Assembly: GCA_022614805.1 (NCBI GenBank)
Contig: JAKEHY010000022.1
Span: 15,903 to 79,902, forward strand
Source: Candidatus Zixiibacteriota bacterium
GTDB lineage: Bacteria > Zixibacteria > MSB-5A5 > DSPP01
Length of the DNA: 64,000 bases
Direction: 5' to 3'
The notes beneath the pieces are model-generated. The model had not been told where the DNA came from. It ran no database searches and saw nothing but the letters and a program-made list of their open reading frames with translations. Positions 23,250-30,453 of this stretch are shown piece by piece. The position numbers and the translations under genes were made by a program. Position 1 is the first letter of the stretch; each line of letters begins with the position of its first letter.

Positions 23250-25607
23250 ATGCAACAAGATATACGAGGAAAACCGGCGCTAACGATACTTCTCATCCTG
23301 CTGTCAGCTTCACCCGGCTTTGCCTTCCAGCCGCTTTTTGACACTTGGATGAGCTATGATGTAGGGAGTAGTCCTTACTATACCTGCGCGGCCGATTTGG
23401 ACGGGGACGGGGACCCGGATTTGGCCGTGGCAATTAGTGGCAGCCACTCCGTTTCAATCTTGAAGAACAGCGGGGACGGGACTCTTGCCGCCAAAGTTGA
23501 CTACGGAACCGGGGGCGGCCCTCGCTTTGTTTTTGCTTCCGATTTGGATGGGGACGGGGATTCGGATTTGGCCGTGGCGAATTATGGCAGCAAAAACGTC
23601 TCGGTCTTGAAAAACAACGGGGACGGGACTTTTGCCGCCAAAGTTGACTATGGAACCGGAGGTGGCCCTACCTCCGTTTTCTCCGCCGATTTGGACGGGG
23701 ACGGCGATGGGGATTTGGCCGTTGCGAATTACGATAGCAACACCATCTCGGTCTTGAAAAACAACGGGGACGGGACTTTTTCCCCCAAGATTGATTACGG
23801 GCTCGGGGGCCACCCCCTCTCTGTTATCGCCTCCGATTTGGACGGGGACGGGGATTTAGATTTGGCCGAGGTGAACGACCGCGGCCTCACCGTTTTTGAC
23901 GACAGCGTCTCGGTCTTGAAAAACAACGGCGATGGGACTTTTGCTCCCAAGATTAAATACGGAACCGGGAGCGGCCCTTCCTCCGTCTTTGCCTCCGATT
24001 TGGATGGGGACGGAGATTCGGATCTGGCCGTGGCGAATTTTAACGGCAACAGCGTCTCGGTCTTAAAAAATAACGGCGACGGGACTTTTGCCGCCAGGCG
24101 CGACTACGGGGCAGGGAGAGGCCCGCGCTCCGTTTTTGCCTCCGACTTGGATGGGGACGGGGATTTGGATCTGGCCGTGGCAAATTTTACCAGCAACACC
24201 ATCTCGGTTTTGAAAAACATCGGAGACGGCACTTTTGCCGCCAAATTTGACTATGGAACCGGGGGAGGCCCGCGCTCCGTTTTTGCCTCCGATTTGGACA
24301 GGGACGGGGATTTGGATTTGGCCGTGGCGAATTTTAACAGCAACAGCGTCTCGGCTCTGAAGAACAACGGGGACGGGACTCTTGCCGTCAACGATGACTA
24401 CGGGGTGGGAAGCGGCCCTACCTCCGTATTAGCCTCCGATTTGGACGGGGACGGGGATGGCGACTTGGCCGTGGTCAATCAGGGCGGCAGCAACGTATCG
24501 GTCCTGAAGAACAACGGGGACGGGGCTTTTGGCGCCAAGTTTGACTACGGCGTGGGAAACTTCCCGAGCGACGTCTTCGCCTCCGATTTGGACGGGGACG
24601 GGGATGGTGACCTGGCCGTGGCCAATCAGGGCGGCAGCAACGTATCGGTCCTGAAGAACAACGGGGACGGAACTTTCGCCGCCAAAGTTGACTACGGCGT
24701 GGGAAGTTTCCCGAGTGACATCTTCGCCTCCGATTTGGACGGCGACGGGGATTGGGATTTGGCCGTGGCCAATCTGGCAGGCAACACCGTGTCGGTCTTG
24801 AAGAACAACGGGGACGGGACTTTTGCCGCCAACGATGAATACGGTGTAGGAAGCGGTCCTATTTCTGTTTTTGCCTCCGATTTGGATGGAGATGGGGACC
24901 GGGATTTGGCCGTGGCAAATTACATCAACAACACCGTCTCGGTATCGAAAAACAACGGGGACGGAACTTTCGCCGCCAAACTTGACTACGGAGCCGGGTT
25001 AAGCCCCATCTCTGTTTTTGCCTCCGATTTGGACGGCGACGGAGATCGGGATTTGGCCGTGGGAAACGTTGATGGCGACAACATTTCGGTTTTGGAAAAC
25101 AACGGGGACGGAACTTTCGCCGCCAAACTTGACTACGGAACCGGGTTAAGCCCCACCTCCGTTTTTGCCTCCGATTTGGACGGGGACGGAGATCAGGATT
25201 TAGTCGTAGCAAACAGTAAAGCCAGCGCCGTCTCGGTCTTGGAGAACAAAGGGGACGGAACTTTTGCCGTCAAGGTTGACTACGGAACCGGGTTAAGCCC
25301 TACCTCCGTTTTTGCCTCCGATTTGGACGGGGACGGGGACCGGGATTTGGTTGTGACAAAGACTAATAGCGACACAGTTTCGGTTTTAAGAAACCTGTCT
25401 GATATCTGCGCAATCGATAGAGGAGACATGAATGACGACGGCGGCTTGTCGCTGACGGATATAGTCATAATGTTAAACTGCGTGTTTCTGGAAGAGGGAA
25501 ACTGCGGCCCCTGCTTGGCCGACGTCAACTGCAGCGCGAACTTGTCTGCGGCTGATGTCGTGTGGGAAATTTACGCCGTGTTCTCGAAAATTCCATTTCC
25601 ATGCTGA
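23250..25607 (+). CDS. Secreted FG-GAP/VCBS repeat protein (14 repeats) with C-terminal dockerin-like domain
   Basis: Signal peptide; 14 copies of DLDGDGDxDLAV..VSVLKNNGDGTF; C-terminal GDMNDDGGLSLTDIV...ADVNCSANLSAADVV. Confidence 0.93.
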   Translation: MQQDIRGKPALTILLILLSASPGFAFQPLFDTWMSYDVGSSPYYTCAADLDGDGDPDLAVAISGSHSVSILKNSGDGTLAAKVDYGTGGGPRFVFASDLDGDGDSDLAVANYGSKNVSVLKNNGDGTFAAKVDYGTGGGPTSVFSADLDGDGDGDLAVANYDSNTISVLKNNGDGTFSPKIDYGLGGHPLSVIASDLDGDGDLDLAEVNDRGLTVFDDSVSVLKNNGDGTFAPKIKYGTGSGPSSVFASDLDGDGDSDLAVANFNGNSVSVLKNNGDGTFAARRDYGAGRGPRSVFASDLDGDGDLDLAVANFTSNTISVLKNIGDGTFAAKFDYGTGGGPRSVFASDLDRDGDLDLAVANFNSNSVSALKNNGDGTLAVNDDYGVGSGPTSVLASDLDGDGDGDLAVVNQGGSNVSVLKNNGDGAFGAKFDYGVGNFPSDVFASDLDGDGDGDLAVANQGGSNVSVLKNNGDGTFAAKVDYGVGSFPSDIFASDLDGDGDWDLAVANLAGNTVSVLKNNGDGTFAANDEYGVGSGPISVFASDLDGDGDRDLAVANYINNTVSVSKNNGDGTFAAKLDYGAGLSPISVFASDLDGDGDRDLAVGNVDGDNISVLENNGDGTFAAKLDYGTGLSPTSVFASDLDGDGDQDLVVANSKASAVSVLENKGDGTFAVKVDYGTGLSPTSVFASDLDGDGDRDLVVTKTNSDTVSVLRNLSDICAIDRGDMNDDGGLSLTDIVIMLNCVFLEEGNCGPCLADVNCSANLSAADVVWEIYAVFSKIPFPC
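23390..25400 (+). repeat. Intragenic tandem repeats of about 147 bp encoding FG-GAP blades
   Basis: The GCCTCCGATTTGGACGGGGACGGGGA core recurs about every 147 bp. Confidence 0.9.
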
Positions 25608-26666: not shown

Positions 26667-26703
26667 CACCGTCAGCAGGCGAAATTAATTTCGCCTACAG
26701 AGG

Positions 26704-26733
26704 AAAAAAGCGGGCCGCAAGGCCCGCTTTTTT
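26704..26733 (+). terminator. Rho-independent terminator (potentially bidirectional)
   Basis: A6-GCGGGCC-GCAA-GGCCCGC-T6 downstream of htpX. Confidence 0.9.
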
Positions 26734-26943
26734 ATTGGGTAAAATCTCTTCAAACGCTCTCCTAAATCGCAACGTATGAATAATCGAAAGACAACAATTG
26801 GGAAAACAGCAAAAAAAGTACTAAGTCCATAGGGAGGTATCATTAAGCCTTTTTGCCAAAAAGTCGCTCAAGAGCGTTCATTGCTTCTGGTTGCGGCTAA
26901 TGAAAAGAGAACTGCGAAAAACTTCAGTTGTGGGCTTTGGGGT

Positions 26944-28782
26944 TTGAAAGGGGGATGTAAAAGGTTACATTTCCTATACCTGCTTTTCTTCCTTTTGGCA
27001 AGCACGGCATTTGGAACAGAGCGGGACGGGATAAAAGTGTTGTCTGAAGGAATCGGTAGTCCCCGGTTTGTCTCCCTTCGCAGTCTGGCAGCGGCCGCCG
27101 ATAGCTGCGATACCATAAATTATGCCTGCAATCTCACCTTTTTCCATCCGGTTCCGGACGGCTTTGGGAACATTGAAGAAGGGATGCGTTTTGATAATGC
27201 CGGGCCAAACCCGGTATCGTTGAAACGGGTGCAGGTTCTGCTTTACAACTGGCCGGGCAGTTCCACGGACACCACCAGCAATTGCGTGATAAACGTTTAC
27301 GCAAATGCCAGCCCGGACAGCATCCCGGGGGCGCTTTTGGGCAGCATTACCATTCCGAATCACGTTCTTATCGGTGCCAACTGGCCCCCTAACGGCGTCC
27401 TTCAGGTGGGGGTCGATTTTTCGCCAAACAATCTTACCTTCGACCCCAACGCCCGCTACCATATCGGCGTGGAGTCAAACGGTCCCGGGGAACTTAACGT
27501 GCTTTTGGATAACGGAAATCCTTGTGCTTCCAATCGGTGGGTGGAGGAGGATGCCTTCGGCTGGCATGTGGTAAACGGGGCCTTTCCGGGCAATCCCTAT
27601 AACGTGCACATTTACGCGGAAGCCTGTGCGGCCAACCCCAATCAGCCGCCCGTAATTGTCAACTGCCCACCTGTCGATACGGTCAACCTTGGTGAAACTG
27701 TTACTTATCAATTTCAAGCCCAAGATGACGGCCTTCCCGGCGGGCCGCTAATCTGGCGGAAACTGTATGGGCCGGGTTCATTGGATTCACTTACAGGGCA
27801 GTTTTTTTGGATACCCCAAGTTGAAGATGCGAGATTTGGTGCAGTGGAAGTGGCAGTTAACGATGGGGAGTTGTTTTCCGAGCCCTGTTGGGCTTTTTTC
27901 GACCTTAAAATAGACGACTGCAACCAAAATGGTATAGCCGACTCTATTGACATCGGAACTGGGACAAGCCGGGACTGCGATACGTCTGGGATACCGGACG
28001 AGTGTGAATTTAGATTTGTCGCGGGGGATGTGGATTCTTCGTCACAGGTTGACCTCGCAGATGTTCAATATCTGGCGGATTACATTTTTAAATCGGGGCT
28101 CTGTCCGGATGGGAGTGGCTACAGTGGCGACGTAAATTGCTCGCGGTCGGTAGGTCTGGCAGACGTAGTTTACCTTGCAAAATACGTCTTCCAGGGCGGT
28201 CCTGAACCCTGTGATGCTTGCCAAATCGCCTACCCGACGTTGGCCGGTCTTTGCCTCGGCTATCAAGATAAATCAACGCTGTATTTAGACCCCATAGACA
28301 CCGGGCCAAGTGGCCAGAATATTGACATTACAGTCGACGACGACTTCTACGTCTTCCAAGGTGCCCACGAATTCACAAATGTTAAAGAGCTGATAGAAGC
28401 AATTTGCAAAAAGAAGGAGAAGCTAAAACGTCAAATCAGAGTTCTGGTAGATACCCATGGGATAAAGGAAGGCGGGACCATATTAGTCGGGACCGCCGAA
28501 CCCAAAGATGCGAAAGGTGGGACTGGTGATAATGGCGACTTTGCCGGTGTCACTAAGCTTGATAAAGACAACGCCCAAGCTTTTGCCGACAAGATAAAGG
28601 ACAAAGTGGAGACTATAACCTTCGTTGCCTGCAATGCTGCCAAAGGGGAAGACGGAGCGGCACTCCTGGAAGCGATGGGTAGCGCAGAACTCACGGTATG
28701 GATGTTTGATGGGGTGGTCTGTAGCAGCGCCAAAGGTTTCGCCCCTGAAAAAGATTCAAATATGAAGTGTGATGCGGACTAA
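26944..28782 (+). CDS. Secreted multidomain protein: beta-sandwich, Ig/cadherin-like, Ca-binding repeats, dockerin and C-terminal DUF4347/caspase-fold-like domain
   Basis: Signal peptide (start uncertain: TTG 26944 or 26881); NQPP..QAQDD Ig-like segment; DCNQNGIAD/DCDTSGIPDECE; GDVDSS..GDVNCS dockerin pair; VDTHG...FVACN putative His/Cys dyad. Confidence 0.8.
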   Translation: MKGGCKRLHFLYLLFFLLASTAFGTERDGIKVLSEGIGSPRFVSLRSLAAAADSCDTINYACNLTFFHPVPDGFGNIEEGMRFDNAGPNPVSLKRVQVLLYNWPGSSTDTTSNCVINVYANASPDSIPGALLGSITIPNHVLIGANWPPNGVLQVGVDFSPNNLTFDPNARYHIGVESNGPGELNVLLDNGNPCASNRWVEEDAFGWHVVNGAFPGNPYNVHIYAEACAANPNQPPVIVNCPPVDTVNLGETVTYQFQAQDDGLPGGPLIWRKLYGPGSLDSLTGQFFWIPQVEDARFGAVEVAVNDGELFSEPCWAFFDLKIDDCNQNGIADSIDIGTGTSRDCDTSGIPDECEFRFVAGDVDSSSQVDLADVQYLADYIFKSGLCPDGSGYSGDVNCSRSVGLADVVYLAKYVFQGGPEPCDACQIAYPTLAGLCLGYQDKSTLYLDPIDTGPSGQNIDITVDDDFYVFQGAHEFTNVKELIEAICKKKEKLKRQIRVLVDTHGIKEGGTILVGTAEPKDAKGGTGDNGDFAGVTKLDKDNAQAFADKIKDKVETITFVACNAAKGEDGAALLEAMGSAELTVWMFDGVVCSSAKGFAPEKDSNMKCDAD

Positions 28783-28862
28783 CAGTGCACTCGACGTACC
28801 GACGTGGCATGGGGCCACCGACAAATGGCTAATGGTCACGTGTGCCTAAGAAGGTGGGGATA

Positions 28863-29621
28863 ATGAGACTATCCAGAGTAGCTGCGATGATGGCATTGAG
28901 TTTGGGGTTAGTGGAAGTTCCCTGTAAAGCCCAAAGCGCGATTGATACGGTTCGGTTTACGGATGTCTCCTTCTTCGATAGCACGGTAGAGTGGAATATC
29001 TGCGATGCCTCCTCCGGAGTCGTTTCGGTATCTTTGTATAATGATGAATGGCTTGCAGGGATTGTGGTACCCTTTCAGTTTAGCGACACAATCGTTAATA
29101 TAGATTCTATTTCTTTCGCGGCATCGCGCGTTTCAAGCTCTTTGGGTCCAACTGGCACTCTCCTTCCTGACCTCCGAAGTGGTATCATCGGTTTTGTTGA
29201 TATTAATCCGCCCGAGTTCGATAGCCTTGCCCCAGGGGACGGATTGATAGCGAGAATTTACTTTACTCAAAGGTCTGGCGTCGGAAACTTTCCAAGTACA
29301 ATTGGTATCGACACAACGGCCTCACTTAACGCGGCCGCACTGGAGGTCGTTACGCCCGAACCACTAGCGAGTACCGTGGTGTCGAAACCCGCATTCATTC
29401 ATCCGGTAGCCTTCAGGGGCGATATGAACGCCAGCGGCAATTATTCGGCCGCCGACATCGTTGCGGAAATCAACTGCGTCTTCTCTCAAACGGGAAATTG
29501 CTACTTCTGCTATGCAGACATCAACTGCAGTGGAAACTTGTCCGCGGCGGACATCGTGCTTTTGATTGGCCGGGTCTTTAACGAAGTGTGCGGCCCCACC
29601 TGGTGCGGCCCCTGCCCGTAG
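28863..29621 (+). CDS. Secreted cohesin-like plus dockerin-like protein
   Basis: Signal peptide MRLSRVAAMMALSL..; cohesin-like LAGIVVPFQF..IDSISF..LAPGDGLIARIYF; C-terminal GDMNASGNYSAADIV..ADINCSGNLSAADIV. Confidence 0.78.
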   Translation: MRLSRVAAMMALSLGLVEVPCKAQSAIDTVRFTDVSFFDSTVEWNICDASSGVVSVSLYNDEWLAGIVVPFQFSDTIVNIDSISFAASRVSSSLGPTGTLLPDLRSGIIGFVDINPPEFDSLAPGDGLIARIYFTQRSGVGNFPSTIGIDTTASLNAAALEVVTPEPLASTVVSKPAFIHPVAFRGDMNASGNYSAADIVAEINCVFSQTGNCYFCYADINCSGNLSAADIVLLIGRVFNEVCGPTWCGPCP

Positions 29622-29679
29622 CTTCGGCCACCTGCATCGCTAAAGACAAAAGGGCAACGAGGAGGCCGGTTTTTTTCAT
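29578..29679 (-). pseudogene. Possible 5' remnant (signal peptide only) of a truncated secreted-protein gene
   Basis: MKKTGLLVALLSLAMQVAEA begins with an ATGA overlap on the Zn-ribbon gene stop, then runs into the 3' end of the convergent gene. Confidence 0.4.
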
Positions 29680-29801
29680 TTCCGTTCTTTTCTGATTTTC
29701 TGAAAGCGGATTTTTCCGCAGGAAGGACATTTCCACTTCCGGTTTTTGTGGAAACTTCGCCGCTCCTCCCGCATCGGCCCTCCGCAGCGCGGGCAGGTCA
29801 T
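29676..29801 (-). CDS. 41-aa zinc-ribbon microprotein
   Basis: Hand translation: MTCPRCGGPMREERRSFHKNRKWKCPSCGKIRFQKIRKERK*, with two CxxC motifs. Confidence 0.7.
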   Translation of the reverse strand: MTCPRCGGPMREERRSFHKNRKWKCPSCGKIRFQKIRKERK

Positions 29802-29813
29802 TGGATTGCAATT

Positions 29814-29841
29814 GTAGGGGCGGTTCGTGAACCGCCCTTAC
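29814..29841. repeat. GTAG-type REP palindrome
   Basis: GTAGGGGCGGTTC-GT-GAACCGCCCTTAC. Confidence 0.85.
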
Positions 29842-29859
29842 ACAAAAAAAAGAAAAAGC

Positions 29860-30453
29860 TCACTTTATTAGTCCAAGAAAATCCCCAAAGAGAAATTCCA
29901 GCCGTCCAATCAACAAAGAAATGCGGGACATCACCGTGTTGCCAAAGGTGGCGCCGAAGAAAATCATCAAATACCAGGTGCCGATGGTGGCCAGCTTCCC
30001 CCACCAGCCCTTATGCTCACGGGAGAAGAAAAAGTAAACGAGGGTCGTTATGACTCCAACAAGGATGAAAATGTTGGCGGCTGAATTGAGCGGTTTCATG
30101 GTGGCCGAGAGTTGAACCAGAATGCGGGCTTGCAGAAGGGCCGGAACGGCGACCCCGGCACCCGCGCCGATGATTAATGCCAGAGGAATCCGGGAGGCGG
30201 GGCGGGTTTTTTCGGTCAAACGGCCCAGGATAAGAATTATCAAAATGAATGGAACAACCACCCACCAGTCCCCGGCTTGTAACGGCTCCAAAACCTTCGG
30301 AACGAGCGTTCCCTGGACGGCAATCACGGTAAAATAACCGGCGGAAAGCCCCACCAAAAGATGCTCGGCCAAGCGGAAGAAAGGATTTTCGCGATAGAGG
30401 AAGCTGAAAATGGCCAAAGTGAGAATGGCGGCGGCGAAATTCCCGGCCGTCAT
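29860..30453 (-). CDS. Conserved uncharacterised multi-TM protein (DUF6754-associated operon)
   Basis: FSFLYRENPFFRLAEHLLVG and FGATFGNTVMSRISLLIGR; 5-6 TM helices. Confidence 0.8.
   Translation of the reverse strand: MTAGNFAAAILTLAIFSFLYRENPFFRLAEHLLVGLSAGYFTVIAVQGTLVPKVLEPLQAGDWWVVVPFILIILILGRLTEKTRPASRIPLALIIGAGAGVAVPALLQARILVQLSATMKPLNSAANIFILVGVITTLVYFFFSREHKGWWGKLATIGTWYLMIFFGATFGNTVMSRISLLIGRLEFLFGDFLGLIK

Follow-up and report, generated by a model that had tools for sequence, protein, structure and literature searches.

A dockerin protein with a DUF4347-like His-Cys domain and a cohesin-fold neighbour in a Candidatus Zixiibacteriota genome

We analysed a window of 64,000 nucleotides from a Candidatus Zixiibacteriota bacterium, an uncultured organism of sediment (assembly GCA_022614805.1, contig JAKEHY010000022.1, positions 15,903 to 79,902 of the forward strand; the genome is called G000 below). 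Within it lie two adjacent genes: gene 1, whose 633-aa product carries a dockerin followed by a clan-CD-type His-Cys domain, and gene 2, whose product joins a cohesin-fold domain to a dockerin of its own. The reading that we favour, and on balance hold to be the better bet, is that gene 1 supplies a docked cargo of cysteine-protease type and gene 2 its own adaptor, and that the two are plugged into a non-cellulolytic cohesin-dockerin surface display anchored through a type IX secretion system (T9SS). The parts of the two genes that carry this reading are listed here, with positions counted from the first letter of the window.

26881..28782, + strand: gene 1, 633 aa, a mosaic secreted protein, taken from the list of open reading frames (ORFs); alternative start at TTG 26944
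28012..28209, + strand: dockerin module of gene 1, aa 378-443; its end, ...GGPEPC, resembles that of the genome's terminal dockerins (own-genome profile 45.9 bits; alignment A6)
28210..28335, + strand: Cys-rich linker of gene 1, aa 444-485, common to the relatives P0076 and P0078 (alignment A1)
28336..28779, + strand: DUF4347/Tce1-like (clan-CD-type) His-Cys domain of gene 1, aa 486-633, predicted from alignment A1, Pfam matches of its relatives, hhalign and a structural model
28456..28458, + strand: codon of His526 (VLVDTHG), invariant in A1 (H87), aligned with the HG of DUF4347
28630..28632, + strand: codon of Cys584 (ITFVACN), invariant in A1 (C145), aligned with the GC of DUF4347 and with the 'VGCS' of MARTX cysteine protease domain chains
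28863..29621, + strand: gene 2, signal peptide, cohesin-fold domain and dockerin; ATG 28863 is the likely start, and the longest ORF begins at GTG 28842
28929..29411, + strand: predicted cohesin-fold domain of gene 2
29418..29618, + strand: dockerin of gene 2, at the C-terminus of the protein (own-genome profile 88.3 bits; Pfam Dockerin_1 E 0.0014)

The His-Cys domain of gene 1

A first-pass annotation had described, behind the dockerin of gene 1, a domain of about 170 aa with a His codon at 28456 and a Cys codon at 28630, and had likened the pattern to that of clan CD, the cysteine protease domains (CPDs) of toxins and DUF4347. Both residues stand out when homologues are aligned. A comparison of the last 194 aa of gene 1 with 1.84e9 representative proteins returned five other proteins, four of which are true relatives: a 118-aa ORF from an Acidobacteriota metagenome-assembled genome (P0075), two proteins of ~510 aa with N-termini that look lipoprotein-like by eye, one of them from a Krumholzibacteriota metagenome-assembled genome, and a protein of 341 aa that matches PEP-CTERM weakly. 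The fifth protein, P0077, matched only the Cys-rich linker, in five repeated stretches, and was left out of the alignment as a compositional or repeat match. In the resulting alignment, A1, columns H87, G88 and C145, which correspond to His526, Gly527 and Cys584 of gene 1, are invariant in all five sequences. Two further cysteines, those of 'AIC' and 'VVC', are both present or, in P0079, both absent, and because they occur together or are missing together, the alignment suggests that they may form a disulfide.

The locus of P0075 (L001) offers two observations of its own. In-frame sequence 5' of the 118-aa ORF (L001:5839-6435) resembles the N-terminal part of the family (…ELIEKIC) back to stop codons further upstream, and three ORFs that look patatin-like by eye lie alongside.

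The domain of gene 1 gives no Pfam DUF4347 (PF14252) match at E<=10, nor any in the search of its own genome. Three of its relatives approach the cut-off of 24.6 bits for that family, with P0078 reaching 24.1 bits (E 3.3e-5), P0079 19.2 and P0075 18.0, while P0076 has no match. Peptidase C80 (PF11713, cut-off 23.8 bits) is matched at sub-threshold scores by P0075 (15.0 bits) and P0078 (13.0 bits), and by gene 1 not at all; NCBIfam returned nothing for either gene 1 or gene 2. Comparison of one profile with another is more telling. Aligned by hhalign with five DUF4347 domains that score above the Pfam cut-off and come from five genomes of the same phylum (A7), A1 matched over 60 columns with a probability of 94.9% and E 4.2e-8, placing VLVDTHG on LHFRGHG and ITFVACN on IYLWGCH. 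A profile search of the PDB with the family put MARTX CPDs first, at a weak E of 0.12, with the cysteines in register; the residue met on their side is the Cys of 'VGCS', which we take to be the catalytic Cys of the CPD.

An AlphaFold2 model of the domain, built from five sequences only, shows an alpha/beta core with a mean predicted local distance difference test score (pLDDT) of 59.9; the core blocks score 67-90, and the first 43 residues, which correspond to the Cys-rich linker, are disordered (pLDDT <50). By our test of fold likeness the modelled domain appears to resemble Tce1 (PDB 9qpe chain G), the solved DUF4347 member. In the Foldseek search that the first-pass annotation had proposed as a check, no PDB structure was matched at E<=0.001, and among the weaker rows CPDs, caspases and TcdA/B are mixed with pyridoxal kinases and ClpP. 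DUF4347 ranks 8th and C80 26th in the Protein Atlas, where all scores lie below 0.9, so that these are leads only. The domain is acidic, with an isoelectric point (pI) of 4.9.

From these comparisons we assign the domain, at the level of sequence profiles, as a homologue of DUF4347 whose HG and Cys motifs are aligned with those of the family and whose score falls short of the Pfam threshold. At the level of fold and superfamily the alignments place it in clan CD as a CPD/DUF4347-like domain with putative catalysis, and in this the first-pass likening of its His-Cys pattern is borne out.

Cohesin folds, dockerins and T9SS anchors

Gene 2 had been described as a cohesin-like domain followed by a dockerin, and both parts are recovered. 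The AlphaFold2 model of its N-terminal domain (37 sequences) has a pLDDT of 77.7 and a predicted template modelling score of 0.76. Foldseek returned 25 PDB matches at E<=0.001, with TM scores of 0.45-0.62 and the top rows, at E 1.2e-5 to 1e-3, being cohesins; among the 21 rows listed at E<=0.001, 20 are cohesins or cohesin-containing complexes and one is a cellulose-binding domain. The structures that match best are those of cohesins bound to dockerins. The Protein Atlas gives a further lead, as 20 of the 30 matches fall in clusters with Pfam Cohesin in 13-19% of the members. Sequence-based searches do not see this relationship: Pfam Cohesin (PF00963, cut-off 24.1 bits) has no match at E<=1 to gene 2 or to the eight members of its alignment A3, a phmmer search of the PDB with gene 2 gave 0 hits, and PDB profile searches with the gene 2 cohesin alignments A3 and A5 likewise gave 0 hits. 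The single sequence of gene 2 (28842-29621) also has no match in a collection of 5.8 billion proteins, unlike gene 1 and the paralogue on contig C25; gene 2 may not be called there. Based on the modelled fold, we describe gene 2 as a cohesin-fold module joined to a dockerin, which is the architecture of an adaptor scaffoldin, and the cohesin-fold module is a predicted socket.

The gene 2 domain has three paralogues in the genome, giving four cohesin-fold genes in all: gene 2 and genes on contigs C25 (224 aa), C5 (304 aa) and C33 (667 aa). The family is present in 138 of the 151 genomes of the class that were searched, in several copies each; the fusion partner of the domain is a dockerin, a T9SS sorting domain or a Lys-rich tail. 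The class-wide members at loci L028-L057 are mostly secreted proteins of ~190-260 aa with charged tails and no Pfam Cohesin match.

Dockerins had been claimed for both genes, and their hallmarks are present in each. Starting from the gene 2 module, we grew a hidden Markov model (HMM) iteratively within G000, and this own-genome HMM finds 55 dockerin ORFs in the genome, 52 of them outside the window. An alignment of 46 modules (A6) shows G11, D12, D23, D46 and D57 to be invariant; gene 1 and gene 2 both contain the two D.N.DG....D.V segments and so the duplicated GD.N.DG....D loop-helix of a type I dockerin. Both score below the Pfam Dockerin_1 cut-off (PF00404, 22.9 bits), gene 1 at 10.7 bits (E 0.62) and gene 2 at 19.3 bits, and six of the 52 ORFs outside the window exceed that cut-off at E<=1e-5. 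The module is terminal in 54 of the 55 ORFs, with 6-20 residues after it (median of all 55 ORFs, 8). Only in gene 1 does the protein go on, for another 196 residues beyond the ...GGPEPC that closes its dockerin near aa 443. A Cys lies within the last five residues in 53 of the 55, usually in the form ...P-x-P-C. This conserved terminal Cys, found genome-wide (for example at 25389-25604 and 29406-29618; L062-L113), could be a disulfide clasp or an attachment site.

What the dockerins are attached to agrees with the first-pass remark that the system, although similar to a cellulosome, lacks carbohydrate-active enzymes. Among the dockerin-tagged proteins of G000 are two subtilases of family S8, peptidases of families M4, M6 and C11, a phosphatase (PhoD), a homologue of glucose/sorbosone dehydrogenase (GSDH), a beta-helix protein and numerous FG-GAP and BNR propellers; at E<=1e-5 the set contains no glycoside hydrolase family.

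Two of the cohesin-fold proteins end in a T9SS sorting domain, since Por_Secre_tail (cut-off 27) scores 29.3 bits on the 304-aa protein of C5 and 31.2 bits on the 667-aa protein of C33. The secretion system is represented by SprA_N (45.4 bits) in a 2193-aa ORF and by 34 sorting-domain matches in the genome. Cohesin-fold modules fused to a T9SS sorting domain and a T9SS are thus found in one genome, which is the combination by which we recognised a putative T9SS-anchored cohesin-dockerin display. The distances from the four cohesin-fold genes to the nearest other dockerin ORF are 54, 252, 415 and 2974 bp; a dockerin ORF lies within 300 bp of 6.0% of random segments and within 3000 bp of 12.5%. 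In two genomes of the same genus, G025 and G026, the C25 and C5 paralogues keep their arrangement with dockerin genes.

Two other loci of the genome are of note. At G000:C5:54140-63167 (L108, L114, L109), a 1328-aa dockerin protein of the C11 clostripain family comes first, the 304-aa protein with cohesin fold and T9SS sorting domain next, and a dockerin-bearing S8 subtilase last. Here, for a second time in the genome, a clan CD peptidase with a dockerin precedes a cohesin, and this neighbourhood is conserved in G025. At G000:C15:43412-45951 (L005, L006), ORFs of 1747 aa and 300 aa each carry a T9SS sorting domain and match Pfam Cohesin at 14.6 and 21.1 bits, respectively; the latter is the best match to that family in the genome and lies below the cut-off of 24.1 bits. 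These two ORFs may be further divergent cohesins.

These parts suggest how the pair could work; for gene 1 and gene 2 we infer the export route, the binding, the specificity of pairing, the catalysis and the substrate. After export, the dockerins would plug into cohesin-fold modules, and the two cohesin-fold paralogues with T9SS sorting domains would fix the assembly to the outer membrane. The cohesin of gene 2 would take one dockerin protein, most simply that of its neighbour gene 1, while the dockerin of gene 2 would dock onto an anchored cohesin. The C-terminal domain of gene 1 would then be displayed as a cysteine protease acting on other proteins.

A variable slot in the genus and the rival explanations

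The pair and the remaining parts of gene 1 are set in the following surroundings.

26745..29672, no strand assigned: strain-specific islet with gene 1 and gene 2, between the terminator hairpin of an M48 peptidase gene and a conserved, convergent downstream region; boundaries approximate
23250..25607, + strand: upstream FG-GAP repeat protein with a C-terminal dockerin at 25389-25604 (context)
26944..27015, + strand: probable signal peptide of gene 1, MKGGCKRLHFLYLLFFLLASTAFG, if TTG 26944 is the start; judged by eye
27016..27912, + strand: N-terminal region of gene 1, aa 46-344, family not assigned (no Pfam match at E<=10; best PDB sequence match E 1.2)
27913..28008, + strand: DCNxNGIxD...DCxxxGIPDECE motif of gene 1, aa 345-376, DDCNQNGIADSIDIGTGTSRDCDTSGIPDECE, with 69% identity, across 32 aa, to a motif repeated in P0010

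The M48 peptidase gene lies upstream of gene 1, beside the FG-GAP-dockerin gene. In G025, the hairpin of the M48 gene is followed directly by the convergent downstream genes, with ~196 bp between M48 and a convergent membrane-protein gene, and in G026 the slot is filled by a different, 410-aa secreted ORF; the genes that flank the slot have 65-92% identity to their counterparts in G025 and G026. The slot 3' of the M48 gene (about 26667-26745 and 29672-29860 of the window; L060, L061) is thus hypervariable within the genus, being empty, occupied by another ORF or occupied by the pair. The FG-GAP-dockerin gene is also missing at its syntenic place in both genomes. Judged from these alignments, the pair is a 2.9-kb strain-specific islet that appears to have been recently acquired.

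The longest ORF of gene 2 (28842..29621, + strand) encodes 259 aa from a GTG. The more likely start, judged from the sequence, is ATG 28863, which stands behind an aaggtgg ribosome-binding site and 80 nt after the stop codon of gene 1; with this start, the gap of about 80 bp stated by the first-pass annotation holds. A simple terminator scan found no terminator-like site in the 59-nt gap between the gene 1 stop and GTG 28842, and the two genes probably form a co-transcribed pair. In a look-up of expression, no RNA data set was listed as containing the stretch.

The in-frame TTG at 26944, from which the first-pass annotation had started gene 1, gives an N-terminus (MKGGCKRLHFLYLLFFLLASTAFG) that by eye looks like the signal peptide claimed for it, and the DCNxNGIxD repeats noted there are likewise present, at aa 345-376. 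Their counterpart P0010, in which the DCNxNGIPDECE motif is repeated, is named as a thrombospondin type 3 repeat protein in its source. Gene 1 has no full-length homologue in the 5.8-billion-protein collection: its 73 non-self matches cover 5-19% each and map either to the motif at aa 345-376 or to the dockerin. For aa 46-375 there is no Pfam family at E<=10 and no PDB sequence match better than E 1.2, and the beta-sandwich and Ig-like domain that the first-pass annotation had read ahead of the motif are putative. The sole relative found for the N-terminal region is a 297-aa ORF of G026, with 34% identity over aa 32-227, which ends in a hydrophobic anchor in place of the C-terminal modules of gene 1.

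We searched 285 genomes of the phylum, G000 included, for the C-terminal domain, and its profile matches two of them, G000 itself and, weakly, G239 (E 0.0065), a genome of the same class. The match in G239 is a DUF4347 domain that exceeds the Pfam cut-off (35.4-36.9 bits), in a protein of 319 aa (L118:1327-2286) composed of a signal peptide, the DUF4347 domain and a C-terminal, dockerin-like duplicated segment, the last of which is matched by the own-genome HMM at E 6.5e-4 and by no Pfam model at E<=0.1. As DUF4347 is here the sole cargo ahead of the tag, a displayed unit is favoured over a processing device.

Several of these results weigh against a docked protease with its own adaptor. The first-pass annotation had proposed a two-gene module that loads a protease or effector onto a scaffold; the fold, the dockerin and the non-carbohydrate-active parts of that proposal stand, but the linkage of the two genes in relatives does not, as the pair is absent from the syntenic slot in both G025 and G026 and the loci of the C-domain relatives have no gene-2-like neighbour. 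The C-domain profile finds only the two genomes mentioned among 285, and the dockerin score of gene 1 is the second lowest of the 55. For 27 of the 30 best cohesin-fold loci of the class, chosen by a profile that is dominated by one subfamily, the ~1.5 kb fetched to either side contain no dockerin gene. The pairing of cohesin with dockerin rests on a modelled fold and on gene neighbourhood, and Tce1, to which the domain is compared, is described in the available text as only a putative protease (PMC13323088).

The alternative that we take most seriously, while still regarding it as unlikely, is that the C-terminal domain is a self-cleaving, cis-acting, CPD-like tail, in which a cut after ...PEPC would leave the dockerin free at the C-terminus or detach the protein from the scaffold. 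The CPDs of MARTX and of the large clostridial toxins are autoprocessing domains, and the family of the gene 1 domain is related to C80-type CPDs. The position of the domain fits as well, given that the other 54 dockerins end within 6-20 residues and gene 1 has the same ...PEPC end before its extra 196 residues. In its relatives, however, the domain is not preceded by a dockerin, as it closes lipoproteins, sits on a PEP-CTERM protein or stands almost by itself, and the DUF4347 domain of G239 stands ahead of its dockerin as the only cargo. A weaker objection is the acidic character of the domain (pI 4.9), as an activation site of the inositol hexakisphosphate (InsP6) type is expected to be basic. 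Rather less probable, in our view, is that the dockerin-like modules are C-terminal Ca-binding tags for sorting or anchoring, with a terminal Cys, and that the cohesin-fold proteins are unrelated to them and the genes merely neighbours. Like sorting signals, the modules are strictly terminal and nearly all end in P-x-P-C; with 55 copies they are as common as the T9SS sorting domains (34 matches) of the same genome, which has no cohesin at the Pfam cut-off, and the scarcity of dockerin genes next to class-wide cohesin-fold loci points the same way. Against such a tag, the closest structures to the gene 2 domain are cohesins bound to dockerins, all four cohesin-fold genes lie near dockerin genes in an arrangement that G025 and G026 keep for C25 and C5, and six of the 52 modules pass Pfam Dockerin_1.

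Two further explanations we consider far more remote. The first-pass annotation had offered, as an alternative, a polymorphic effector with its partner, in which gene 1 would be a toxin with a swappable C-terminal toxin domain and gene 2 its immunity protein. The domain is indeed appended to an otherwise complete dockerin protein, it lies in a variable islet with a small gene downstream, and it resembles the effectors Tce1 and Tce2 of type VI secretion systems (T6SS). This alternative nevertheless found no support and we think it very improbable: gene 2 combines a cohesin fold and a dockerin with a signal for export, its domain family occurs in 138 of 151 class genomes and that of the C-domain in 2 of 285 phylum genomes, so that the two are independent, and downstream of the C-domain in loci L001, L002 and L004 of its relatives there is no small gene that is shared or gene-2-like, the fourth locus, L003, having been screened only with cohesin and dockerin profiles. 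The least credible explanation of all is an artefact, either a chimeric assembly at the repeated dockerin or a decaying gene fusion with no function, even though gene 1 is unique and its dockerin scores low, and gene 2 is missing from the protein collection searched. Three further runs, made on other samples of that study, yielded contigs that match with 0 differences; one of these contigs covers 27870-29159, bridging the dockerin, the C-domain and the start of gene 2; and the identical 633-aa protein is recorded on two contigs, one of them 509,772 bases long. Because of the bridging contig and the protein found twice, an assembly artefact is rejected and the domain behind the gene 1 dockerin is real. 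The open frame, the catalytic-type residues and the Cys pattern of the family are intact, which speaks against decay. A protease-type cargo docked by way of its own adaptor stays the reading that we prefer.

Comparison with known systems

The closest studied relative of the gene 1 domain is Tce1 (PA0256) of Pseudomonas aeruginosa, which carries DUF4347 according to the available part of its description (PMC8262886). In the available portion of another report, the C-terminal domain of Tce1 is called a putative cysteine protease whose His186 and Cys240 align with the dyad of the TcdB CPD, and the toxicity of Tce2 in yeast is tested with a C115S variant (PMC13323088). Tce1 is a cytoplasmic T6SS cargo held inside Hcp3 rings, whereas the gene 1 domain sits on a dockerin protein that is predicted to be Sec-exported, has a Cys-rich linker and probable disulfides, shares 17% identity with Tce1 and falls below the Pfam threshold. 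Compared with the C80 CPDs of MARTX and TcdA/TcdB, all similarity scores are weak, and those CPDs come from toxins whereas the host of gene 1 is environmental.

Cohesin and dockerin modules outside cellulosomes have long been known and are reportedly the subject of a 2009 review by Peer et al. In cellulosomes, adaptor scaffoldins, such as those of Acetivibrio cellulolyticus and Ruminococcus flavefaciens, consist of one or more cohesins and a dockerin, and gene 2, with its cohesin-fold module and C-terminal dockerin, is built in the same way. It differs from them in having a single cohesin that Pfam Cohesin does not recognise, in a Gram-negative-type host with T9SS anchors and with no carbohydrate-active cargo at E<=1e-5. 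The order of modules in gene 1 also has a parallel, as in xylanases of Clostridium thermocellum the dockerin is internal and a catalytic module follows at the C-terminus. An enzyme-type domain follows a mid-protein dockerin in both cases, but the cargo of the xylanases is a carbohydrate esterase or glycoside hydrolase and that of gene 1 is of clan CD type.

DUF4347 is widespread and its function is putative, the members studied being T6SS cargo only, so its union with a dockerin on an exported protein, in gene 1 and in G239, points to an extracellular, scaffold-bound role. A bolder synthesis, to which we attach little confidence, is that the class-wide, so far unseen cohesin-fold family, the Cys-ended dockerin tags and the T9SS anchors together form a general surface docking system for proteases and adhesins, and that the DUF4347-like tail of gene 1 is a self-cleaving switch within it. 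If this were true, the switch would time either the appearance of the dockerin as a free terminal plug or the release of the docked protein, and it would be the first function for DUF4347 outside type VI secretion. Our literature search found no paper that links dockerins to Zixibacteria, and none that links a CPD-type autoprocessing domain to a dockerin.

A cellulosome-like system that is similar as a whole is that of Ca. Stygibacter (Cloacimonadota), also from the FCB group, for which dockerin-tagged chitinase, amylase, and S8 and C25 peptidases, together with a cohesin scaffoldin bearing a T9SS C-terminal domain, have been inferred, going by the accessible part of the paper (PMC8542988). 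As far as that part describes it, the two systems share dockerin-tagged peptidases or exoenzymes and cohesins fixed through the T9SS, both being inferred from genomes only. They differ in that Ca. Stygibacter has one scaffoldin of 3,755 aa, while here single cohesins are found on small proteins, and in that the present locus has a cohesin-dockerin adaptor and, in gene 1, a DUF4347-like domain placed behind the dockerin. The general arrangement is not new, since it is in print for Cloacimonadota (PMC8542988). Our locus adds evidence that T9SS-anchored cohesin-dockerin docking in uncultured FCB-group bacteria serves proteases and adhesins, not cellulases, and that most of the cohesin sockets are missed by current family models. 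New are the union of a dockerin with a DUF4347-like domain, which here lies behind the dockerin, and a class-wide cohesin-fold family that family libraries have missed.

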